DNA of 32,000 bases from Candidatus Hermodarchaeota archaeon (lineage in GTDB: Archaea > Asgardarchaeota > Heimdallarchaeia > Hodarchaeales > Hodarchaeaceae): contig JBHLKY010000033.1 of the NCBI GenBank assembly GCA_048886185.1, positions 1,621 to 33,620 on the forward strand, written 5' to 3'. This document shows positions 6,696 to 23,744 of this stretch, one piece after another. The notes under the pieces were generated by a model. That model saw only the letters and a program-made list of their open reading frames with translations. It was not told the origin of the DNA and searched no databases. The position numbers and the translations under genes were made by a program. Each line of letters begins with the position of its first letter. The first letter of the stretch is position 1.

Positions 6696-7733
6696 ATGGT
6701 TCATGTATTATCGAGGGATTTCATCGGAAAAAGAGTAAGTCAGATACCAAAGTTTGGTCAAGCATTAGGAGTATATGTGTTATGTGCTTCGATTTGTTAT
6801 ATAATTCTCATAATTTTGTTAGATAGCTTCATTGTTCCAGTATTCATTGATGATTTTAATCGCTCAATTATGTTCCTAACAGCAATTATAGCAGTTATTT
6901 ATTACAAGGAAGATCTCAAAGAGATCCTTTTAATCTGTTTTGGAGGACCTCTTATAGTAAATATATTAGCTATTATCCCTGCTATTTATATTTGGTCAGG
7001 AAGTCCCTCTGATCAAGTATGGACTGATTTAATGAGGTTATTCACCTTTTCTAGTCTCTATATTGTATATGCGGGGTTTGCTGGGATTTTAATTTATTCT
7101 CTAGCTGTATGGATTTCAGGATTTTTATCATCTCGTTCCCCAGTTCATTCTTCAGCATTTAAGAAGAATGTATTCACGTTTATTGACAAAAAAGATCAGA
7201 ATGATTATACAATCAGTGTAAAAGAATATTCTAACAATAAAGCCCATACAACTTATCAATTGATTGGATTTCTGCTTTATCTATCTGTCCTTTTTTGTTT
7301 AACCATATTATTATTTTTGGTTCCTATCTATAACTATTCATTTGACCTTCATCTGTCAATCTGGGATCTTGGTTTAATTCCTGTACTCCTTGTGGGTTTG
7401 GCAGCTATTAATCTTTTATCTATTGTAATTTTTAGTCCTTTCTGGCATTATTATCCTTCCTTAACCGAGAGATATCCTAATTTAATTCTTAATATTCAAT
7501 CAAATCTTTCTGTAATATGTATCTTTTTTGCATCAATATTTTTCCCTAATCCCTCAAACATCCGGGTAGGAACATTTGTTGTTGAAAATGGCATTGGAAT
7601 AGAAATCTTATTTTATCTAATTATCTTAATAATAATATTTACACCTGCTATCTATGAATATGTTCAACCATTAAGAAATTTAAAGTATCATACAAAACAA
7701 CATGAACCAGCAACTCCTTCGGAATCACAATAG
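6696..7733 (+). CDS. Polytopic membrane protein of unknown function
   Basis: 345-aa ORF with many hydrophobic segments in two blocks separated by a polar loop (SSRSPVHSS...NNKAHTTY). No family motif recognised. Its stop overlaps the convergent gene at 7725-7733. Confidence 0.7.
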   Translation: MVHVLSRDFIGKRVSQIPKFGQALGVYVLCASICYIILIILLDSFIVPVFIDDFNRSIMFLTAIIAVIYYKEDLKEILLICFGGPLIVNILAIIPAIYIWSGSPSDQVWTDLMRLFTFSSLYIVYAGFAGILIYSLAVWISGFLSSRSPVHSSAFKKNVFTFIDKKDQNDYTISVKEYSNNKAHTTYQLIGFLLYLSVLFCLTILLFLVPIYNYSFDLHLSIWDLGLIPVLLVGLAAINLLSIVIFSPFWHYYPSLTERYPNLILNIQSNLSVICIFFASIFFPNPSNIRVGTFVVENGIGIEILFYLIILIIIFTPAIYEYVQPLRNLKYHTKQHEPATPSESQ

Positions 7734-8705
7734 ATTTTTATTCTTTTTATCATCGTCTTGAAGGAATTTAGTAAGTTTATTAGTTCTAAGCTCAAATCGT
7801 ATTTGTTTAATTTTCTTCCTTAAAGAACGAACATAATTAGAGTTTTCAATTTGGTTTTCATAATCGTTAGCTACTAAAAACCACCATACATTCCATAACG
7901 TCCGCCATATCCATCCCTCAGATCCAGGTTTATGTAAAATTTCATAGGATTCGATAAACGGGGGAGAATAAAGCTCAAATAATTCTGAATTCAAACCTTT
8001 AGCTCTCTTTTTCTTTCTACGTGCTTCATGAATGTAAACTGATCCTTCAGGAGTGTAACATGAACAAAAAGCAGCATTTCTTCTCCAACCGATCCAATCT
8101 AAAGAATGAAGAAAGTCTTGAAAGATAATTTGATGATAAGGGCTTCCAATCCCAAATCCATGGTACCTTTTTTCAGGAAAACGCGACATTAAATACATTA
8201 ACCAAGAAATGACATCCATAACGCTCCCCTTTTGATTAATCTTGAATGCTGGAACCATTCCTCCCAATCCTATATAATCTACAGAGGGGTATAGATTTCT
8301 TTTTTCAGGAAGATGTATAACTGGTAAAATATTAATATTAAATTTATTAATCAATTGAAGCCAATTCTGACTTGATTTTGTTGGATTCCCAATTACATCT
8401 AAGTTCACAATGATATCATCATCCTGAACACCAAGGTTCGAGAGAAATGATGAATATTCTTGAAGTTGGATTTTTATACCAGAGTTAAAAGCGCTGTAAG
8501 CTCCAGAATCTACTATTATTGAACCTTCAAAAGAGAAATAATCATGAAGGCCTTTAGAGATAATTTCCTTTTCTTTTTTACGAAAAGACCAATAAGAAAA
8601 AATAATACCTACCTGTTTCTCTTTCATTTTTTTGGAAATACTATATTCTTTTAACCATGGAAAAATACCAGGAACTACTCCTAAATATAGTTGCAAAAGA
8701 TTCAT
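7725..8705 (-). CDS. TGT/DpdA-like (queuine tRNA-ribosyltransferase-like) TIM-barrel protein, paralogue A
   Basis: Ordered motifs VDSGAYSAF, NLDVIGN, LPVIH, IGLGGMVP, YHGFGIG, SLDW correspond to the TGT barrel motifs DSGG(F/Y)Q through D(C/S). No PUA domain and no complete CxCx2C zinc site. Confidence 0.7.
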   Translation of the reverse strand: MNLLQLYLGVVPGIFPWLKEYSISKKMKEKQVGIIFSYWSFRKKEKEIISKGLHDYFSFEGSIIVDSGAYSAFNSGIKIQLQEYSSFLSNLGVQDDDIIVNLDVIGNPTKSSQNWLQLINKFNINILPVIHLPEKRNLYPSVDYIGLGGMVPAFKINQKGSVMDVISWLMYLMSRFPEKRYHGFGIGSPYHQIIFQDFLHSLDWIGWRRNAAFCSCYTPEGSVYIHEARRKKKRAKGLNSELFELYSPPFIESYEILHKPGSEGWIWRTLWNVWWFLVANDYENQIENSNYVRSLRKKIKQIRFELRTNKLTKFLQDDDKKNKNLL

Positions 8706-8857
8706 CCTTTGTTACATTCGAGAAATTATTAGAATTCTCAAGATGGAGAAGGGATTTCTAAATCAGTATAAAATTGTGTTAGGAATTAATTTTAATATTA
8801 ATCTAATTGATAAAAATAACGATTTAATCCAAGTTTCTTTAATAAGGTGGTTTTTAC

Positions 8858-9751
8858 ATGGTTGAGGTCTTTTTAATCAAAACTGATGATCGTATTAAAG
8901 GGCTGCAAGCTATTTTCACTCATTTTAAATCAGTTTTCGATGATTTAAAGGAAAAAACAGTAGTCATTAAGCCCAATTTTAATACAGCAGACCCTCCTCC
9001 TGCTTCAACCGATATTGGGATTATCAGGGAATTAATCAAACATCTTAAGATTTGTGGATCGAAGAAAATAACTGTGGCAGAACGAGCAGGACCTGCAGAT
9101 ACACATGAAACAATGATAACAAAGGGTCTTTATAACCTACAGGAAGAAATAGGAGGTTTTGATATAGTTGATTTATCTTCCCTTCCACAATCAGAATGGG
9201 TTCATTTTCTGCCTAGTAATTCTCATTGGAAGGATGGCTTTTTATTTCCCAAACTACTTCAAGAAGTAGATGCAATAATTGCATTACCATGTCTTAAAAC
9301 ACATCAATTTGGTGGCCATTTTACTTTCTCTCTTAAGCTAGCAGTTGGATTAGTTCCCCGCCAAGGATACGAATACATGCGAGAGCTTCATTCTTCTCCT
9401 TCCCAGCGAAAACTGATTGCTGAAATTAATCAAGCTTATTCGCCTACATTAATAGTTTTAGACGGTGTTGATGCATTTGTTGAAGGGGGGCCTGCAAGTG
9501 GAAAACTTGAACATCCTCAAGTAATGTTAGCAAGTACAGATCGAATTGCTATTGATGCTGTGGGAGTAGCAATCCTTCGAGATCTTGGCACAACACCTGA
9601 GGTTTCAAATGGGGATATTTTTGATCAAGAACAGATAGCCCGAGCAGTTGAGCTTAAACTTGGAATTCAAAAACCTTCTGAGATTATATTAATAGGTGCT
9701 GATGAAAGGAGTAATCAATACGCCAAGAACCTTCAAAAGATGCTAAAATAG
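8858..9751 (+). CDS. DUF362-family protein (putative Fe-S oxidoreductase)
   Basis: VVIKPNF, PCLKTH..GG.FTFSLKL.VG, LIVLDG, G......P..MLASTDRIAIDAV match DUF362. AGGTGG RBS lies upstream. Confidence 0.85.
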   Translation: MVEVFLIKTDDRIKGLQAIFTHFKSVFDDLKEKTVVIKPNFNTADPPPASTDIGIIRELIKHLKICGSKKITVAERAGPADTHETMITKGLYNLQEEIGGFDIVDLSSLPQSEWVHFLPSNSHWKDGFLFPKLLQEVDAIIALPCLKTHQFGGHFTFSLKLAVGLVPRQGYEYMRELHSSPSQRKLIAEINQAYSPTLIVLDGVDAFVEGGPASGKLEHPQVMLASTDRIAIDAVGVAILRDLGTTPEVSNGDIFDQEQIARAVELKLGIQKPSEIILIGADERSNQYAKNLQKMLK

Positions 9752-9777
9752 TCTTTAGTGGTCATAATTGGAAGAAC

Positions 9778-10272
9778 TTGATATTGAAAACCCCGAAAAT
9801 CCTGCTAATTATATCATGTGGAAAGAAGAAGGCCCAAAAGCTACATAATCATAAAATGCGGGCTTCTTATGCATATACTGGTCCTATGTATCAGATTATC
9901 AATAAGGCGAAACGAGAAGGTAGATGGGGATCTAATCTCTTCTTGGGAATTGTTTCAGCTAAATACGGTTTTCTTCGCGGTGATGATCTTATAGAATATT
10001 ACGATTTAAAAATGACTGCAAAAATAGCTGAAAAACACAATACTCAAGTAATCTCTGAGATAATCAAATGGAATAATGAGGAAAAATTTGATTATATTCA
10101 TGTTTTAATGGGAAAACTATACTTAAAAGCAATTGAAGACTTAGAAACTCATTTAGAAACTACTCTTGTGGTTGAAAATATGGGAGGTTTAGGTTTTGGG
10201 CAACAAAAATTGATTAAATTTTTAAACAAGTTCTCAGAAAAGCCTCATTTTCATATCAATTTCAAAAAGTGA
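9778..10272 (+). CDS. DUF6884-like small alpha/beta protein
   Basis: TTG start. LLIISCGKKK, A..AYTGPMY, IVSAKYGFL, IEYYDLKM match the C-x3-K / A..lY.G / SAkyG / YD pattern of DUF6884 (YaaA-like fold) as recalled. Confidence 0.7.
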   Translation: MILKTPKILLIISCGKKKAQKLHNHKMRASYAYTGPMYQIINKAKREGRWGSNLFLGIVSAKYGFLRGDDLIEYYDLKMTAKIAEKHNTQVISEIIKWNNEEKFDYIHVLMGKLYLKAIEDLETHLETTLVVENMGGLGFGQQKLIKFLNKFSEKPHFHINFKK

Positions 10273-10281
10273 TGATTAACG

Positions 10282-11358
10282 ATGATTTTCGCCCTTGGTA
10301 CTCCAGTTAACTCAAGATGTCGTCCTTGGACTTACAATTGGGCGTTAGAACCAGATGCACTTATGATCTCTGCTATAGACTTCCTTAACAGTCCAAAACT
10401 ATTTCAAAAAATTAAGAAAAATGGGATTCATGAATTTCTCGGTTGGGATGGCCAAATCATCTGTGATTCAGGAGCTTTCTCTGCACTCAATCGAAAGAAA
10501 AAGACCAATCTTGATATAGAAAAATTGAAGAGAATATACAGAGAATTAACAAACCAGGATCCAGCCATTTTAAAAATAACATTAGATTTTCCTGATGAAA
10601 AGATTTTAGCTAATTACAGGGAACTATACCCATTGGAAGTACAGCCTGTTGTTCCTTATGATAGACTCGAAATTATGGATAATATTCTCCAGAATGAGGG
10701 GATCCCTCAGTGGTTTTTTATCGGACGTCTAGTTCCATTAATGAGAAGAGGGGGTGGACATGCAAGGCGATTATTTTTCGTGCTCAATAAAGTAAAAAAA
10801 CATCTTACTAACTTTGAAAGTGGACTGAAAGTAAATTTATGGGCATTAGGAGTGGGTGCACCAAGTATTATTAATCAAATTGCGAAATTGGTTGATGGAT
10901 GTGATTCTACTAGGTGGCGTGTTACAGGTTCTAATATGATATTGTTACCTAAAGGAGGTGAACGTGGGGTCGGAAATTTAACAAAATGGCGTGGGACTCA
11001 CCATAGAATTAATCAAAATATTGAAAAAGAAATCGTTATACAAGTCCTTCAAGAAATTGATGAGAAATCTGGAGGATTGGAATACCTAGATGTCTTACTC
11101 CTACCAGAAAAGAAACCAAAACAGTTGAAAAATAAAGTAGAGAAAGGATTACCTACAATAGGAAATCTTCTTAATAAATTACGAGAAAAAAAGGAAGAAA
11201 TATCAGTTTATGACTTAGAGCTCCTTTTACGAACATCTGGAAATTTGAGATTGATCTTTAATTATTGGGCAGCTTTATCTTTTAAAACAAAGCTGTACCA
11301 TTTTACAAGGATCAAAGAATCCAAACATTCATGGATGAACTCAGTTCTAACTGAATGA
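10282..11358 (+). CDS. TGT/DpdA-like TIM-barrel protein, paralogue B
   Basis: Motifs ICDSGAFSAL, TLDFPD, QPVVP, FIGRLVP, WALGVG, DGCDSTRWR in TGT order; collinear with paralogue A. Confidence 0.7.
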   Translation: MIFALGTPVNSRCRPWTYNWALEPDALMISAIDFLNSPKLFQKIKKNGIHEFLGWDGQIICDSGAFSALNRKKKTNLDIEKLKRIYRELTNQDPAILKITLDFPDEKILANYRELYPLEVQPVVPYDRLEIMDNILQNEGIPQWFFIGRLVPLMRRGGGHARRLFFVLNKVKKHLTNFESGLKVNLWALGVGAPSIINQIAKLVDGCDSTRWRVTGSNMILLPKGGERGVGNLTKWRGTHHRINQNIEKEIVIQVLQEIDEKSGGLEYLDVLLLPEKKPKQLKNKVEKGLPTIGNLLNKLREKKEEISVYDLELLLRTSGNLRLIFNYWAALSFKTKLYHFTRIKESKHSWMNSVLTE

Positions 11359-12707: not shown

Positions 12708-15158
12708 GTGATCCACGATCCCGTTATATATGAGATCAACAATATAAAGGAGTTATCTTTTGAGAAGACATCTAGAATTCTTCTCCTAGGTTCAAAACTT
12801 AAAATAATGCAATATTTCAGATCAAAATTTAAGAATCTTCGTCCACGTTTGATTTTCTTAGATTTATCATTGTATTATCAGGATTTCAAGAGGATAGAGA
12901 GAATTTTTAAAACCTTACAAGATACAGAGTGTCCTCAGATCAGCGAAATAAATGGGAATTTTTGGAAAAAAGTAGAAAGAATATTTGAAGACTGCAAATT
13001 AACCTTATGTGATGATGGATATATCGCTGTTAAAGTGAATGGAACAATCAAATCAGATGTAAAATCTAAATTAGATATCATTTTTGGTCATGACCAATTT
13101 GTTAATGAAATCATCATCGATTCTCCTTTTAAGCTCTGGTATGCTCCCAACTCTACAGTGTTTGAGAGAACCAATTACATTATGCTTTATTCACAAAATC
13201 TTAACCAACGAATTAAACCTGTGTTAAATGAAAAAGTGAGTGGAGGATATTGGCACTCTTTCGTCTCTAAAGGACAGGGTAAGGCCAAAAGGTTTAAATT
13301 TCGGGATGGTAAAGAAATTATCTTGACTCCTCCCCTTGGGACTCATTGGAAATTAAAACAAAAAACAATCCTAGAGCTATGTGAAAAAGGGGAAATTCGT
13401 TTAAATAAGAAGGGGAATCCAGAATATTGGGTTCCTTTAAAAAAGGGACAAATTATTGACTCCAATTGGTTAGATATACAAAGCTATGAATGGAATCATG
13501 ACCAAAACGTTATCAATTCTTCGGATCTATATAATCGTTTATTTAGTATGTGTTTAGATGGGGGGGATCTCTATCTTGATTTATCTACGAATTTTGGAAC
13601 CTCTTTGGTTGTTGCAAGTCGATTACAGTTAAAATGGATTGGATTAGAAGAAAATAAGTATAAATTTAAATTAATAATGAAAAACTTAATAGAAAAAGGG
13701 ATCCATTTTTGTGTATATGACTGTGAATCTCTTCCTGATTCTCTGAATAATATAAAATACTCTTATCATGAAAAGGACTTAAGTACTTCTGTTGATGACT
13801 CACATAGTCTTGAAAAACTATCGCTACAGCTGATTGAGAGGTATAATATTCAAAATTTGAATTTCAATTTGGAATTAATAGGTAATTGGTCAAATAAACT
13901 GATTTTAGGCGATAGTTATGATGTTTTACGACTTCTAAAACCTAATTTTCAGAAGAAGGTTAAAGTTATTTACATTGATCCTCCATTTTTCACGGGAACT
14001 AATGAAAATATAGTAATTCCAATAGGTCTATCACAACCACTTGGGGTTAACAAATCAGATATACATCTTTCAGTTGAGGATTTAGCATATAACAATGTCC
14101 TAGATGTTTCAAATCCTATCAAATTCTTTATGCAATGGTTCAAGAAACGAATTGAATTGATGAAATCCCTTTTATGTGATGATGGCTTTATTTTTGTTCG
14201 TTTTGATTATCATTTTGGTCATTATGCAAGAATGATCTTAGATGAAGTATTTGGTCGCCAAAATTTTATCATTGAATTTTTAGTTCGAAGAATGAAAAAA
14301 AATCTATCAGAAAGACAAGCTTTTAAACAAACACATCTAATCGTCCATTCAGACTCGTTATTAGTATATCAAAATAGCGAAGAAGCAGATTTAAATCCTT
14401 CAATCGTCAAAAAAATAAGGCGTAAGAACCAAGACTTTGCTGAGAGTCAATATTCTAATGATAATATTTGGTTAGATATTGCTGGTTATGAAAAGCATAA
14501 AAAAACTCTTTACCCAACGGAGAATTCAGAAATTCTTCTTTCCCGAATAATACAGATCTCCTCAAAAAAAGGGGATCTAATTGCTGATTTTTTCTGTGGT
14601 TCTGGAACTACCGCTGCAGTAGCAGAGAAATTAGGACGAAAATGGATTGCTGGTGACATTAGCCGTTATTCTATTCATGAAACAAAAAAAAGAATTTTGA
14701 AAATGCCTAAAAGTGCTTCTTTTGATCATTTTGAATTATCTGGATCTCAAACCTCTACATCTGTTAATCAAGGACTCCAATCGGAATTTAGTATTGATGA
14801 TGAATCATTACCAACTGATGTACCTGTTCCAAAAGTAGAATTGAAAATAAACATTAACAGAAATCAAATAACAATTAATATCGTCCAATTTATCCCCAGT
14901 AATTCATTAAATAGTTCCATAAGACATAACTACATTGATTTTATCGATTTCTGGGCTGTAGATTGGGATTGTCAAGACAAAATATTTATGCCACAATGGT
15001 ATTCATATCGGGAAATGAGAGGAAAAAAGGTGGTTAAGAATATTCAAGCATCAGCAACTCATGAGTACTCCAATCCTGGAAAGTATTTACTAGGTATTTC
15101 GCTTGTTGACGTTTTTGGGAATAGAACTAAACAATCCATGACCATTGACATACAGTGA
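12708..15158 (+). CDS. Beta-class (Type III Mod-like) adenine DNA methyltransferase with two tandem MTase domains, the N-terminal one degenerate
   Basis: C-terminal half has LILGDS, YIDPPF (D at 13977), DFFCGSGTT and the Mod-type tail FIDFWAVDW. N-terminal half has FLDLSLYY (D at 12861) and LDLSTNFGTS at the equivalent positions. Confidence 0.85.
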   Translation: MIHDPVIYEINNIKELSFEKTSRILLLGSKLKIMQYFRSKFKNLRPRLIFLDLSLYYQDFKRIERIFKTLQDTECPQISEINGNFWKKVERIFEDCKLTLCDDGYIAVKVNGTIKSDVKSKLDIIFGHDQFVNEIIIDSPFKLWYAPNSTVFERTNYIMLYSQNLNQRIKPVLNEKVSGGYWHSFVSKGQGKAKRFKFRDGKEIILTPPLGTHWKLKQKTILELCEKGEIRLNKKGNPEYWVPLKKGQIIDSNWLDIQSYEWNHDQNVINSSDLYNRLFSMCLDGGDLYLDLSTNFGTSLVVASRLQLKWIGLEENKYKFKLIMKNLIEKGIHFCVYDCESLPDSLNNIKYSYHEKDLSTSVDDSHSLEKLSLQLIERYNIQNLNFNLELIGNWSNKLILGDSYDVLRLLKPNFQKKVKVIYIDPPFFTGTNENIVIPIGLSQPLGVNKSDIHLSVEDLAYNNVLDVSNPIKFFMQWFKKRIELMKSLLCDDGFIFVRFDYHFGHYARMILDEVFGRQNFIIEFLVRRMKKNLSERQAFKQTHLIVHSDSLLVYQNSEEADLNPSIVKKIRRKNQDFAESQYSNDNIWLDIAGYEKHKKTLYPTENSEILLSRIIQISSKKGDLIADFFCGSGTTAAVAEKLGRKWIAGDISRYSIHETKKRILKMPKSASFDHFELSGSQTSTSVNQGLQSEFSIDDESLPTDVPVPKVELKININRNQITINIVQFIPSNSLNSSIRHNYIDFIDFWAVDWDCQDKIFMPQWYSYREMRGKKVVKNIQASATHEYSNPGKYLLGISLVDVFGNRTKQSMTIDIQ

Positions 15159-15256
15159 GGATATCTAACTATTGTCTCCTCGTTTGAAAAGGCATACAAT
15201 TGGATACCTTTTTGTAAAGTAGGAGATATCTATAATAGAACCTTAATTCCCTTCTT

Positions 15257-15274
15257 TTACAGTATCTACTGTAA
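15257..15274. promoter_or_regulatory. Perfect 8-2-8 inverted repeat, possible operator
   Basis: TTACAGTA-TC-TACTGTAA in the intergenic region, about 77 nt upstream of yjbQ. Confidence 0.3.
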
Positions 15275-15350
15275 TAATTAGTTCTCTTTCTGGATATAGA
15301 CATGCCAAATATCTTATAAGATTATTTTCTTAATCACATGAATTAGAGAT

Positions 15351-15779
15351 GTGAAAAATATGACAGTCTATCAATCTGAAATATCATTGAAAAAAACCCA
15401 TGAAACCGACATTGTCGACATTACCTCTGAACTGGGACGTATTATAGATCATTCTAGAGTAAAAAATGGCATTGTGACTGTTTTTGTACCAGGTTCTACT
15501 GGAGCTATAATTACTCTCGAGTATGAGCCAGGACTTTTACGAGATATTCCAGAATTCTTAGAACGACTTGCCCCTAAATCGCTTGATTATTTCCATGAAC
15601 AAACTTGGCATGATGGTAATGGTCATTCCCATGTAAGAGCATCTTTATTAGGCCCTTCCTTGATGATACCAATTAGTCAAGGGAAGATGATTCATGGTAC
15701 TTGGCAACAGGTTGCTTTCATAGAATTAGATGTTAAACCACGAAACAGACGATTATATGTTACTATCATTGGAGAATAA
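15351..15779 (+). CDS. yjbQ: YjbQ/UPF0047 family protein (secondary thiamine-phosphate synthase)
   Basis: DIVDIT, VFVPGSTGAI, HEQTWHDGNGHSHVRASLLGPS, GTWQQVAFIELD...R.R. A TATA-like ATCTTATAAGAT lies at 15311-15322. Confidence 0.95.
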   Translation: MKNMTVYQSEISLKKTHETDIVDITSELGRIIDHSRVKNGIVTVFVPGSTGAIITLEYEPGLLRDIPEFLERLAPKSLDYFHEQTWHDGNGHSHVRASLLGPSLMIPISQGKMIHGTWQQVAFIELDVKPRNRRLYVTIIGE

Positions 15780-19755: not shown

Positions 19756-21915
19756 CTATTTTAACGGATTCTGTGCTCGATCTCTCCTTTGAAGAATTTT
19801 AAAAGTTTTTCCAAGAAGCACATAGATATTGCTAAGGATTTTTTTCTCAACTTTTTTTGAAAAATGAAATCCTTGAAGAATTGCTAGGTCAAGTGCTTTT
19901 CTTTGAGGTAATTTTAATTGTTCAGGAATCATGGGAAGTTGTATCCTTCGTAGGATGTCAAATTCTCTTATTATCTGATTTTTCTGTGAAGAAAGAATTT
20001 TTGAAACATCTAAGAATAATGGTTCCTTTAAGTAATCAATAATTTGAAGTCTTCCAAAAGATCCTCCAATTTCACGGCGACTTAACAAAAAGAGAACGAT
20101 AAAGAATGAGGAATTAAGCCATGCAGCAAGTAATTTAGCATACTCTACATCATCACTTCGAAGTACATAAAAATTCTTTGAACAAATATGTTTTGTTTCA
20201 AGAAAGTGTCCCATAACACCTGTTGAAGAGATACTGAATTTATCAATGAAGAAAAGATGGCCCCAGGGTTTTTTAATTTTGATTTGCTTGTGTATATGAG
20301 AGATCCATTCAGAACCAAATTTACTTTTTGCTGGGGAAGCATAATGTTCTGTAAGTGCTGTATAGTCTTCTATCCATTTTTGAAATTTTAACTCTGAATT
20401 GGGGATTGATAGTGCAAAATCTTCTACTTGTGGCGATATAAATTGGGTATATTTACCTGGTTTTCTTAAAGATCGGATTATGTATCTTTTTGGAATTTTG
20501 AGGGTGTTTTCCTCACATTTAATTATCACTTCTTCTTCAGTTTCCGAAATACTTGCCCATTTTCGATTGGGAACGAAAAAAAAGTTTGGACCATACATTT
20601 CAATCCCTCGCACAATATCCAAATGCAATTTCTTCCCACTTTTAATGAGGCCTGATCGGAGGAGTGTTTTGCGGAAATTTAAAAGTTCTGGATCCTTTAA
20701 AAAAATTGTCCAATTCCATTCTTTTGCCAATTCTTCTCGTGGAACCAAATGGGTTGAGAAAGGTTGCTCCAATGATCTCTTCGTGTCTAAAAAGCGGATA
20801 AATTGAATTTCAGTATTTTTTTCTGGCGTTTTATTTTTAGCTATAAGCATAATCTCACGGAAACTACTATCTTCGGAATAAGCTTTTTTATCCTCAGGTG
20901 ATGTTATGGCTTTTAATTGGTAATTTTTTAAAAGTAGTTCCTGTACACCACTAGAATACTGAGAAAGGATAGTTGCAGCTGGTAGTATTGCTCCCACTAC
21001 CCCATCCTCCTTAACCAACATATCCGCTAGCAGGAACGCATAAATATGAAGGCCTACTTGGCCCCTTAAATATTGTTTATAGTATTGTTCTATTTTGGAT
21101 AGATTTTTCCTTTGATTATTGTCTATACGGTGTATACGTGTGAAAGGAGGATTCATTAACACCAAATCATATTTATTTATGACATTTTGCTCTGTTTCAA
21201 GACTAGAAGAAAATGTCGCAAAAGCATCCCCGATTGATGCTTGAACTAACCGAAAATCTTGCTTGCATTCTGACAATTTCAGAATGATTCGACAATAAGC
21301 AATGAGAACTGCCGAAGGCATTAGATCATGAATTCTGATCGATGGAAATTGGTCTTTTGAACTCAAATTCTCCAAATAAGCTGAAATAAGCCTTCCTGAA
21401 CCACAAAATGGATCAATTATCGTTTTGAAAGAGCCAGTATTGATCAATTCTATAAGGAGTTGTGCTGAATTGAAGGTTGTATAGTTCGCAGCTAATGTTT
21501 TTCGATCCTCAAAGTCTAAGGACTGTTGTAGTAATGTTCCCAATGTATCATTGTCTAATAAATCCTGTATATCTGGGATTTCTATTGATAAAAGTGAATT
21601 AAGGCAATCTTTCTCATTAATAGCAGTAAAAATCTTATGGATGAATTCCCAGAGACAATTTGATTTAGGAATATCCTTTTTTAATTTTTCTATGATTTCA
21701 AAAGCCGTATTAGCCGATTTAATTATCAACTTATTGTTAAAAAAATGGAGTAACCAATATCCAGCTAAATAAGAGAGTATAAATTCATCTTCACTATGGA
21801 TGAAAGCGGGTAGTTTGGCAAAATTAAAATTAGCTTTACATTCTTCTATCCACTTGTTAATTTCAATAATATTAATATCTCTTGGGTTGAATTCTCTTTT
21901 AGTAACAGGGGGCAT
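19756..21915 (-). CDS. Gamma-class N6-adenine DNA methyltransferase (Eco57I/N-6 methylase-like) with C-terminal target-recognition region
   Basis: IIDPFCGSG precedes LMNPPF; GAILP; C-terminal WLNSS motif. No nuclease motif recognised. Confidence 0.87.
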   Translation of the reverse strand: MPPVTKREFNPRDINIIEINKWIEECKANFNFAKLPAFIHSEDEFILSYLAGYWLLHFFNNKLIIKSANTAFEIIEKLKKDIPKSNCLWEFIHKIFTAINEKDCLNSLLSIEIPDIQDLLDNDTLGTLLQQSLDFEDRKTLAANYTTFNSAQLLIELINTGSFKTIIDPFCGSGRLISAYLENLSSKDQFPSIRIHDLMPSAVLIAYCRIILKLSECKQDFRLVQASIGDAFATFSSSLETEQNVINKYDLVLMNPPFTRIHRIDNNQRKNLSKIEQYYKQYLRGQVGLHIYAFLLADMLVKEDGVVGAILPAATILSQYSSGVQELLLKNYQLKAITSPEDKKAYSEDSSFREIMLIAKNKTPEKNTEIQFIRFLDTKRSLEQPFSTHLVPREELAKEWNWTIFLKDPELLNFRKTLLRSGLIKSGKKLHLDIVRGIEMYGPNFFFVPNRKWASISETEEEVIIKCEENTLKIPKRYIIRSLRKPGKYTQFISPQVEDFALSIPNSELKFQKWIEDYTALTEHYASPAKSKFGSEWISHIHKQIKIKKPWGHLFFIDKFSISSTGVMGHFLETKHICSKNFYVLRSDDVEYAKLLAAWLNSSFFIVLFLLSRREIGGSFGRLQIIDYLKEPLFLDVSKILSSQKNQIIREFDILRRIQLPMIPEQLKLPQRKALDLAILQGFHFSKKVEKKILSNIYVLLGKTFKILQRRDRAQNPLK

Positions 21916-21953
21916 CCCAAAATATCCTTTAAATGCTGTTATTCATTTTATAC

Positions 21954-23744
21954 CTAATCTCCACGCTCAAGTAACCTAGATATTAACTCATTAATTTTTG
22001 AAATCTTCGTATTATCCTGGCATTTGTTGATTTGCATATATTTAACTTGTACTTTTATTTCATTGTGAATTTTTCGTTCATTTGATGAATTCCAATTGAT
22101 GAGTCGAAATGGGATGTTCTTTAGTGGTTCCTCAGAAAATTCTGCAACACCACCGCGAACAAGGCCTTTATTTTTGACCCAATCAAAAACTTCTTTACTA
22201 TTTAGGAAGGCTGTGATATATTCAGGTGATTCTTTCACCCAATTTAATCTTACTAAAACAGTCACATCTTGAGTTGTAAAGATTCCTTGTTTACAAAGAG
22301 CAAATCGTAAAAATCCTCTTTTATCAAACCGATCTTTACAGGGAACACAAATGATTGATTTAGCGTCTCGCATAAGATTGTAATTTCTTATAAATACCCA
22401 TTCCCAATATGGAATTTTTCTATTATATTGATAACGTTTTTCTAATGCTTCCTGAAGAGGTTTAATTTGATTATACAAAGTTGGGTAGTCTGATCTAAGT
22501 ATTTCTTCAGAAAGAATGTCTCCAGGTTTGACAAGGAAGTACTCTGTTAAGAACTCAGCATAATATCTTTGTATTGCTTTTGCTTTTACGACTTGAATTA
22601 AAAGCTTTTTTTCTTTCTTTGTTACTGAAGTTTTTAACTTTAGACGAAAGGCTTTATCTAGTCCACTAACCATCCCATTTCCTATCTCTACAATATCACC
22701 AATCCTAACAAAACGTGATGAGGAGTGTGAAGAGGTTTTTGGAGAATTGTACAAGTATTTGGTTAGTTGTGTGATATGAGGGACTTTGAAATATGTTTTA
22801 TTATTCCATTTCACTTTTTGGTAAGATTTTATTGGATATCCCAACGATATGAGATCATCAACAGAATATAAAGAAGATAGTCGAGTTTTATAACCATTTA
22901 TTAAAATATCAGGAGAAAAATGGCAGGCTTGTTCAAAGACTGCAAGCTTCTGTTCGATATCAATAGGAAGAAAATGCCAAGGTAATGAATTCAAAGGCTG
23001 ATGAGTTTCAAAATATTCCAAATTTCCATCTCTTTTAGAATTTGGTTTCCATAATGAAGAATCAAAAAGAAGTCTACGGACACGATCGAGAACCTTCGAC
23101 TGTAGCTTTCCTTTTTGCCAGTAATTAATAACTTTTAATCCATGATCATGATTACCCTTACGATATTTGAAAATAACAAGATTGAGATTGACTTTTGGGA
23201 ATATTCGGGCTTCATGAAAATTGATTACAACTTCTAGTGAACCATTGTCTAATAAAAACCGTCTTAACGGTTCCGCATGAAGTGTTTGCATCCAGAATAG
23301 AGGTGTAATGAATATTAATTCTCCATCAGTTTCAAGGTGGTCAATACTTTTGAAGATAAACGGTTGTAATATATCTGTTAATCCATTCATACGTTTTTGC
23401 CAAAATGAGGTTGAGCTGAAATATTGCCTCTGTTTTAGAGAAAGATTTTTCCATCGAATATATGGTGGATTACCTATTACAACACTGAATTTATTTGAAA
23501 TCGGATAATCAAAAAAATTCCCTACATTTATCCGAAAAGGGGATTGATTTACGAGAGAAGGATCAATTTCTATTCCAGTAAGATTTTGATACCCCATTTG
23601 GGATAAAAGCTTAAGAAATACTCCTTTTCCAGCACTAGGCTCAAGTATTTTTTTCCTCTTCGAATTAATGGAAATTAAATTAATCATTAATTGTGCAATC
23701 TTAATTGGAGTAAAATATTGCCCCATCGATTTCTCTTTTAACAC
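21954..23744 (-). CDS. Gamma-class N6-adenine DNA methyltransferase (TaqI/Eco57I-like) with TaqI_C-like domain
   Basis: GQYFTP, LEPSAGKG, GIEID, IGNPPY, ELIFITP; C-terminal AFLNSK...L..IPF. Start is GTG at 23744 or ATG at 23726. Confidence 0.9.
   Translation of the reverse strand: MLKEKSMGQYFTPIKIAQLMINLISINSKRKKILEPSAGKGVFLKLLSQMGYQNLTGIEIDPSLVNQSPFRINVGNFFDYPISNKFSVVIGNPPYIRWKNLSLKQRQYFSSTSFWQKRMNGLTDILQPFIFKSIDHLETDGELIFITPLFWMQTLHAEPLRRFLLDNGSLEVVINFHEARIFPKVNLNLVIFKYRKGNHDHGLKVINYWQKGKLQSKVLDRVRRLLFDSSLWKPNSKRDGNLEYFETHQPLNSLPWHFLPIDIEQKLAVFEQACHFSPDILINGYKTRLSSLYSVDDLISLGYPIKSYQKVKWNNKTYFKVPHITQLTKYLYNSPKTSSHSSSRFVRIGDIVEIGNGMVSGLDKAFRLKLKTSVTKKEKKLLIQVVKAKAIQRYYAEFLTEYFLVKPGDILSEEILRSDYPTLYNQIKPLQEALEKRYQYNRKIPYWEWVFIRNYNLMRDAKSIICVPCKDRFDKRGFLRFALCKQGIFTTQDVTVLVRLNWVKESPEYITAFLNSKEVFDWVKNKGLVRGGVAEFSEEPLKNIPFRLINWNSSNERKIHNEIKVQVKYMQINKCQDNTKISKINELISRLLERGD

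Follow-up and report, generated by a model that had tools for sequence, protein, structure and literature searches.

The replacement of guanine in DNA by enzymes of the DpdA type is known from phages and from the Dpd defence islands of bacteria. In phage 9g the dpdA gene adjoins those for FolE, QueD, QueC and QueE. In the DpdA/DpdB/DpdC system of Salmonella Montevideo, residues D95 and D256 of DpdA (structure 7ui4) are essential, and D130 and H181 have been modelled as base readers (PMC10164549). DpdC is reported to carry the DUF6884/PF03883 domain and to convert dPreQ0 to dADG, and DUF6884 has been described as YaaA-like, defined by the motifs CxxxK and LSAxxG, with DNA binding and base flipping predicted for it (PMC11701544). 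The present analysis concerns a stretch of 32,000 nucleotides, below called the window, from Candidatus Hermodarchaeota archaeon, an Asgard archaeon of the order Hodarchaeales (contig JBHLKY010000033.1, positions 1,621 to 33,620). It encodes two TGT-like proteins, A and B, whose open reading frames (ORFs) were confirmed at the coordinates that the initial annotation had assigned to them (Table 1). The reading that we favour, and to which we give about an even chance of being right, is that A and B are two separately active TGT/DpdA transglycosylases acting on the cell's own DNA, within a vertically inherited modification module of Hodarchaeales.

By its sequence, A is a new, cellular representative of the viral DpdA kind. 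Its residues 26–315 match phrog_887, the PHROG family of phage DpdA (2.2e-21), and tblastn with A retrieved 137 phage records at about 25% identity, including DpdA of phage 9g (5e-7) and the Sulfolobus viruses STSV1/2. With the viral enzymes of the 9g type and of STSV1/2 it shares, apart from the phrog_887 profile, a short architecture consisting of the barrel only and the pocket motifs DSG, LD, PV-H, GG, HGFG, D and R-x3-N-x-W. It differs from them in its chromosomal location and its vertical inheritance within an archaeal order, in its lack of linkage to FolE/QueD/QueE/QueC, unlike the 9g gene, and in being paired with a second, very different TGT-fold protein. More distant relatives of A, from bacteria, are encoded in prophage-like regions, or in restriction contexts beside a methylase and a GmrSD-type enzyme. 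Against the general TGT models A stays below the cut-offs: 12.3 bits for Pfam TGT PF01702 (cut-off 26.3), 23.7 bits for TIGR00449 (47.6) and 27.9 bits for the ArcTGT model TIGR00432 (350). By sequence, A belongs with DpdA, whereas B has just a fold-level likeness to the bacterial enzyme.

Both proteins are predicted to fold as a TGT-type (beta/alpha)8 barrel. Their AlphaFold2 (AF2) models reach a confidence (pLDDT) of 93.7 for A and 88.5 for B, and in VIA-align the best match of both is the tRNA enzyme ArcTGT (1iq8), with Z 25.1, root-mean-square deviation 4.5 and 289 residues for A, and Z 19.9, 3.0 and 260 residues for B; the match to the DNA preQ0 insertase DpdA, 7ui4, gives Z 21.4 and 17.7, respectively. 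The statement of the initial annotation that both proteins keep the catalytic aspartates is borne out, with a third aspartate beside them: D66, D103 and D203 of A and D62, D102 and D208 of B are invariant in 36 of 36 sequences of each family, and they occupy the columns that hold the DSG, LD and MFD aspartates in ArcTGT from the same genome, being also shared with DpdA of 9g, of STSV2 and of the bacterial Dpd system. The last of them aligns with the aspartate of the ArcTGT M-F-D-S motif. When the A and B families were aligned with the DpdA proteins of phage 9g and STSV2, a prophage homologue and the own ArcTGT, the columns without variation were D-S-G, L-D, a proline, Gly-x-x-Val, a glycine and the late aspartate. 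Both proteins retain the stacking aromatic residue four positions past the DSG aspartate (Y70 in A, F66 in B), and in the B orthologues the three aspartates and this aromatic residue are present in 35–36 of 36 sequences.

In other features A and B differ from ArcTGT. The genome carries a separate, bona fide ArcTGT of 653 amino acids (aa; C6:153787-154767) with a C-S-C-E-V-C and H-N motif, whereas the CxCxxC...H zinc site is found in neither A nor B: A has a variable C-x-C alone (28/36 and 26/36), with W-N replacing H-N, and B has no cysteine cluster. Neither protein has a Pfam match to the C-terminal tRNA-binding domains PUA or TGT_C2, and both lie far under TIGR00432.

It is in the base pocket that A and B part. 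The pocket of A is canonical (D66-S-G, Y70, D103, H131, G148-G149, H182-G-F184 and D203); H131 and G148-G149 correspond to the base-reading histidine and the Gly-Gly pair of S. Montevideo DpdA (H181 and G206-G207, PMC10164549), neither of which is present in B. The H/P, G/R and H/W differences listed in the initial annotation are real: they correspond to H131/P125, G149/R149 and H182/W187, and each residue is fixed in 36 of 36 sequences of its family. In B, where G148-R149 and P125 are likewise invariant and the motifs R211-W-R213 and G225-G-E-R-G229 occur, W187 stands at a position at which all other compared members carry histidine.

A and B had initially been described as collinear, highly diverged paralogues on the strength of eight motif pairs aligned by eye. 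BLASTP of A against B detects the DSG region alone (61 aa, 34% identity, E 5e-7). Comparison of profiles built from 36 orthologues each aligns residues 12–224 of A with residues 11–229 of B over 200 columns at 21% identity (probability 98.5%, E 1.5e-15). The resemblance is far beyond chance, and the two are homologous and collinear, highly diverged members of one superfamily with the TGT fold in both. Seven of the eight pairs are recovered exactly in this alignment, namely (A/B) IIVDSGAYSAFN/IICDSGAFSALN, NLDVIGN/TLDFPDE, LPVIH/QPVVP, GLGGMVP/FIGRLVP, YHGFGIGSP/LWALGVGAP, SLDWIGWR/GCDSTRWR and TPEG/LPKG. The eighth, WRTLWNVW/LRLIFNYW, falls outside the significant region; the same pairing is obtained in a local hhalign of the C-termini at E 0.1, which is not significant alone, and is backed by a multi-family alignment of 20 sequences, in which N272 of A and N327 of B are invariant and R268/R323 are at least 90% conserved. 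The same R-x3-N-x-W motif is found in the DpdA proteins of phage 9g and STSV2, and in B a C-terminal insertion of about 55 extra residues lies ahead of the helix that carries it.

The term paralogues holds only as far as homology and ancient divergence are concerned. In the maximum-likelihood tree A, the 9g-type DpdA proteins and prophage homologues are split from all other sequences with a branch support of 100/99. B and a protein from a metagenomic archaeal contig, P0189, form a clade of their own (100/98), whose branching order relative to the ArcTGT clade and an archaeal/STSV2 clade is not resolved in the tree. Because the tree places them in different major clades, A and B are to be seen as ancient paralogues recruited to one locus; a recent tandem or local duplication is ruled out by their positions on opposite sides of the 100/99 split.

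B is a new branch of the TGT/DpdA superfamily, rare and distinguished by its rebuilt pocket. It scores 17.6 bits against Pfam TGT PF01702 (cut-off 26.3), 18 bits against TIGR00449 (47.6) and 19.1 bits against TIGR00432 (350), and, in a further difference from viral DpdA, it has no match to any PHROG or phage record; PADLOC gave no match for A or B. Since a PDB sequence search with the B profile gave no TGT match at E<=1, the link of B to TGT is visible only by profile-profile and fold comparison. An exhaustive search of 1.84 billion representatives with the B profile yielded only 114 proteins at E<=1e-3, of which 8 reached E<=1e-30. The next tier after B is an archaeal family of about 320–370 aa with the canonical pocket (DSGG, PV-H, GG, HV-G-G-P), which shares the LP-GGER-V motif of B and is encoded beside QueC, HD proteins and HerA/NurA, or beside an integrase. 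P0192 (L029:3817-16957), one such DpdA-like protein with the canonical pocket, has a stand-alone QueC, two proteins of the HD/HD_assoc_2 type, a protein of 1426 aa and HerA (DUF87)/NurA in its neighbourhood, in what looks like a defence-island context. Two known DpdA types were considered: neither A nor B is DpdA4, as DUF6610 matched neither at E<=0.1, and an assignment of B to DpdA3 is unsupported, the Cellulophaga phiST protein having just rank 37 in the viral fold search.

B is under selection. Its orthologues are better conserved than those of A (mean column identity of 64% versus 50% in 36 sequences each), and in relatives that have both proteins the identity to the window protein is higher for B than for A (73% versus 66% and 62% versus 54%). 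The B-type protein P0189 (281 aa; G-R, W-A-L-G), from outside the order, is encoded two genes after a 357-aa TGT with the zinc motif (L027:883-7640), which makes this a second, unrelated pairing of a B-type protein with a canonical TGT. Two BrxC/D-like ORC/Cdc6 ATPases and a PLD-domain protein (PLD nuclease) are encoded on the flanks of the L027 pair.

A further component of the module is a DUF6884 protein of the YaaA-like kind. It matches Pfam PF21818 at 48.7 bits (cut-off 30) and PF03883 at 1.7e-8, contains both defining motifs, CxxxK (C14..K18) and VSAKYG (residues 59–64, of the LSAxxG type), and is encoded by a single copy in the genome. In PADLOC it matches PDC-M57A (2.4e-10) and, weakly, DpdC (0.006, a model of 312 positions against 164 aa). 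A search from this query at E<=1e-5 found no longer fused forms, which is weak evidence. Additionally, a large DNA methyltransferase is encoded downstream of B. In diverged Heimdall/Hodarchaeales assemblies the conserved core consists of A, divergently oriented, DUF6884, B, the methyltransferase of about 790–816 aa and yjbQ. In three such loci (L002–L004) the methyltransferase gene directly follows B, and the spacers between DUF6884, B and the methyltransferase, where adjacent, are of about 9–56 nt, with a 4-nt overlap of DUF6884 and B in L004. In the window and in the close relative L001 the methyltransferase follows B and a gene for an MFS transporter, and in L001 a 533-aa ORF of no known family also lies between. 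Both the MFS gene and the DUF362 gene are present in L001 and not in L002–L004, and are lineage-specific additions to the core. In one further genome (G102) an EamA transporter gene is located directly upstream of DUF6884 in place of the MFS gene; both transporters, MFS and EamA, are encoded beside the operon and are candidate base importers.

Compared with the bacterial Dpd system, the module is similar in combining a TGT-fold protein, with the base-reading histidine in A, with a DUF6884/YaaA-type partner. It differs in several respects: Pfam and PADLOC detected neither the ATPase DpdB nor the restriction genes DpdD-K among the ORFs of the window or of L001–L004, there are two predicted transglycosylases instead of one, and the DUF6884 protein consists of the domain only. 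Further differences are the DNA methyltransferase in the core, the failure to find QueC in the family, and vertical inheritance in one Asgard order.

The coordinates of the components are collected in Table 1. The five plus-strand genes, from DUF362 to the methyltransferase, are separated by spacers of 9–26 nt, that between DUF6884 and B being 9 nt, and A is oriented divergently to this operon.

Table 1. Components of the locus in the window.
Feature	Position	Strand	Basis
TGT-like A, predicted phage-type DpdA-like transglycosylase, 326 aa	7725..8705	minus	homology, fold, invariant residues
Divergent intergenic spacer between A and the plus-strand operon, 152 bp, AT-rich	8706..8857		ORF coordinates and sequence
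DUF362 protein, 297 aa	8858..9751	plus	Pfam PF04015, 2.5e-37
DUF6884/YaaA-like protein, 164 aa	9778..10272	plus	Pfam PF21818, PF03883
TGT-like B, divergent TGT-fold protein, 358 aa	10282..11358	plus	profile-profile comparison and predicted fold
MFS transporter between B and the methyltransferase, 437 aa	11371..12684	plus	Pfam MFS_1, 7.6e-37
Large N6/N4 DNA methyltransferase, 816 aa	12708..15158	plus	Pfam N6_N4_Mtase, 1.6e-43; PADLOC MTase_III, 6.9e-57

In the methyltransferase the first approximately 390 residues precede the best-scoring Pfam stretch, and the PADLOC MTase_III matches reach into residues 96–324. Its gene is followed by yjbQ (UPF0047; both within 12708-15779 of the window), as in all related loci examined (L001–L004). 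On the other side of the locus, a 345-aa multi-pass membrane protein without a family match (6696-7733, plus strand) is encoded convergently to A, with a 9-nt overlap with its 3' end; it is not among the called genes of L001. Two neighbouring ORFs of the Eco57I/N6_Mtase type, of 719 and 596 aa, are located on the minus strand at 19756-23744, and in L002–L004 MmeI/Eco57I-type enzymes of about 930–950 aa and a SIR2 gene also lie close to the module.

The orthologues of both proteins carry the annotation Hodarchaeales/Heimdallarchaeota. True B orthologues, defined by E<1e-120, were found in 19 of 20 genomes of the own family and in both genomes of the sister family, and in none elsewhere among 301 sampled Asgard genomes. 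For A the corresponding counts are 18 of 21 in the own family and one of two in the sister family, with none in 60 other genomes of the class; in two of the genomes without A the contig ends at the expected position of the gene. The distance between A and B is below 3 kb in 16 genomes and about 12 kb in two. The module is vertically inherited in Hodarchaeales, and full-text searches of the literature returned no paper on Asgard archaea or Hodarchaeales with DpdA or transglycosylase that describes it. In the wider arrangement (L026:1911-13370 of G102, and alike in G280), 12.3 kb of unrelated genes lie between A and the DUF6884-B operon, encoding a 2979-aa Laminin_G_3/DUF2341 surface protein, a glyoxalase, an HTH_10 regulator and the EamA transporter. 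It is also worth recording that in other families of Heimdallarchaeia (L017:4660-10103 and L018:4478-10537) a different TGT, about 390 aa long and with a match to Pfam TGT over the full length (1e-19 to 1e-23), is encoded beside an N6_N4 methyltransferase; in L017 it lies next to UvrD and a PD-(D/E)xK nuclease, and in L018, where the TGT gene is a tandem pair, it is accompanied by a PLD/NgoFVII-like nuclease.

The genes for the supply of the base to be inserted were searched for as well. In the genome, which is 96% complete, the best QueC candidate scores 23 bits (cut-off 150), and none of the 22 genomes searched in the family, of which three are single-contig assemblies, yielded a real QueC; in the sister family one genome has it. 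The family models for QueE give 24 bits or nothing in the own genome, so that no convincing QueE was found, and two PTPS/QueD-like genes are present. These family hidden Markov models were used because tblastn of the phage 9g FolE, QueD, Gat-QueC and partial QueE against the genome, which gave no matches, is uninformative for divergent archaeal versions. Access to preQ0 through FolE, QueD, QueE and QueC encoded in the same genome, as expected for DpdA, is therefore not seen. With QueC and apparently QueE missing, a 7-deazaguanine would have to be salvaged, or else the inserted base would be something different; archaeosine-type tRNA modification would, for the same reason, also depend on salvaged 7-deazaguanine.

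In the favoured reading, that of two transglycosylases active on DNA, both would work by the double displacement of TGT and DpdA. The late aspartate (D203 in A, D208 in B) would attack C1' to give a covalent enzyme-DNA intermediate, the DSG aspartate (D66 and D62) would serve as the general acid/base, and the third (D103 and D102) would read the base edge. A would use the canonical guanine/7-deazaguanine pocket of viral DpdA. The pocket of B lacks the histidine and the second glycine and has tryptophan for the other histidine, and therefore most likely accommodates a different incoming base, or else suits another target base or another sequence context. B would be co-transcribed with the DpdC-like DUF6884 protein, the genes being nearly contiguous, and the latter probably flips out and then finishes the inserted base, while the methyltransferase of about 800 aa may add a further mark; the base would be salvaged, with the adjacent MFS or EamA transporters as candidate importers. 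A bolder version, offered tentatively, is that B, with proline, arginine and tryptophan in place of histidine, glycine and histidine, inserts a base other than preQ0 or ADG, perhaps no 7-deazaguanine at all, which would be salvaged and finished by DUF6884. DNA rather than RNA as the substrate is suggested by the sequence matches of A to phrog_887 and phage DpdA, by the prophage-like or restriction contexts of its distant bacterial relatives, and by the operon of B with a DNA methyltransferase and DUF6884 in L001–L004.

Several observations weigh against the favoured reading. Bacterial DpdA requires DpdB, an ATPase, and among the ORFs of the window no ParB-like protein of this kind was found. 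The conserved core contains no nuclease, and without QueC and QueE the cell does not make the classical preQ0 substrate. B is under every curated TGT sequence threshold, its assignment relying on profiles and a predicted fold, and the placement of the pocket residues at the barrel mouth is likewise a prediction based on alignment to TGT/DpdA and on whole-fold matches. Additionally, the module is near-universal in the order and syntenic with the housekeeping genes yjbQ, TFIIB and hflX. This also fits a lineage-specific housekeeping modification of RNA (tRNA or rRNA) by one or both proteins, a reading that we find improbable; that the best fold match of both is a tRNA enzyme, and that B stands on the side of the tree containing ArcTGT, speak for it as well. 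However, A and B are devoid of the tRNA-binding domains and the zinc motif of the own ArcTGT, A clusters with phage DpdA proteins experimentally linked to DNA, and the operon also encodes a DNA methyltransferase and DUF6884, for which DNA binding is predicted.

Ranked above the RNA target, and below two active enzymes of differing specificity, is a heterodimer of A and B, suggested by analogy with eukaryotic QTRT1/QTRT2, in which one subunit would be catalytic and the one with the altered pocket would position the nucleic acid, or both would act on the two strands of one site; we regard it as unlikely. TGT enzymes are dimeric and the eukaryotic TGT is a heterodimer of paralogues, which counts in its favour, as does the co-occurrence of A and B wherever contigs allow, at the distances given above, and the second pairing in L027. 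As an analogy only, QTRT1/QTRT2 too are two diverged TGT-fold paralogues in an organism unable to make 7-deazaguanine, and they work with salvaged queuine. QTRT2, however, has lost its catalytic residues, whereas B keeps the three aspartates and the stacking aromatic and so does not resemble a non-catalytic partner; moreover, A and B belong to DpdA-like lineages outside the bacterial/eukaryotic TGT lineage. A is also divergently transcribed and can lie 12.3 kb away from B, with unrelated genes in between, and the two are not sister lineages in the tree. The invariance of the catalytic residues of B, together with its better conservation than that of A, argues against a dead accessory subunit and is compatible with a heterodimer of two active subunits. 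Prediction of the A+B complex, with both proteins given as alignments and controls not run, gave an ipSAE of 0.00, which is below the mark and counts neither for nor against binding. Last in rank, and quite improbable, is a role in DNA repair or base excision, in which a TGT-fold enzyme would remove a damaged or foreign guanine derivative, as a glycosylase or by restoring guanine, with DUF6884 recognising the lesion. To our knowledge no member of the TGT family acts in repair, and so close an association with a DNA methyltransferase is more in keeping with a marking system. The lack of preQ0 synthesis would suit repair, but the own ArcTGT also needs 7-deazaguanine and, if active, already presupposes salvage. 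Further points in favour of repair are that the DUF6884 member YfjM is reported among the proteins binding abasic and RNA-base lesions and that YaaA is tied to oxidative stress (PMC11701544), and that DpdA performs guanine-for-guanine exchange in vitro (PMC10164549).

If two active transglycosylases are indeed present, DpdA-type chemistry, as predicted here, occurs as a vertically inherited chromosomal module of a whole Asgard order. This module joins two anciently diverged predicted transglycosylases to a DpdC-like helper and a methyltransferase, with no restriction nuclease in its core and no pathway to the usual base. As the B type is very rare, the change in its pocket is a clean target for studies of specificity and, if the enzyme is active, would point to a new one for the TGT fold. 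Hodarchaeales are the closest known archaeal relatives of eukaryotes, and active enzymes in this lineage would point to an undescribed DNA mark, which could be epigenetic or protective. If B inserts another base, the chromosomes of Hodarchaeales would carry a so far undescribed DNA base beside the classical DpdA-type mark.

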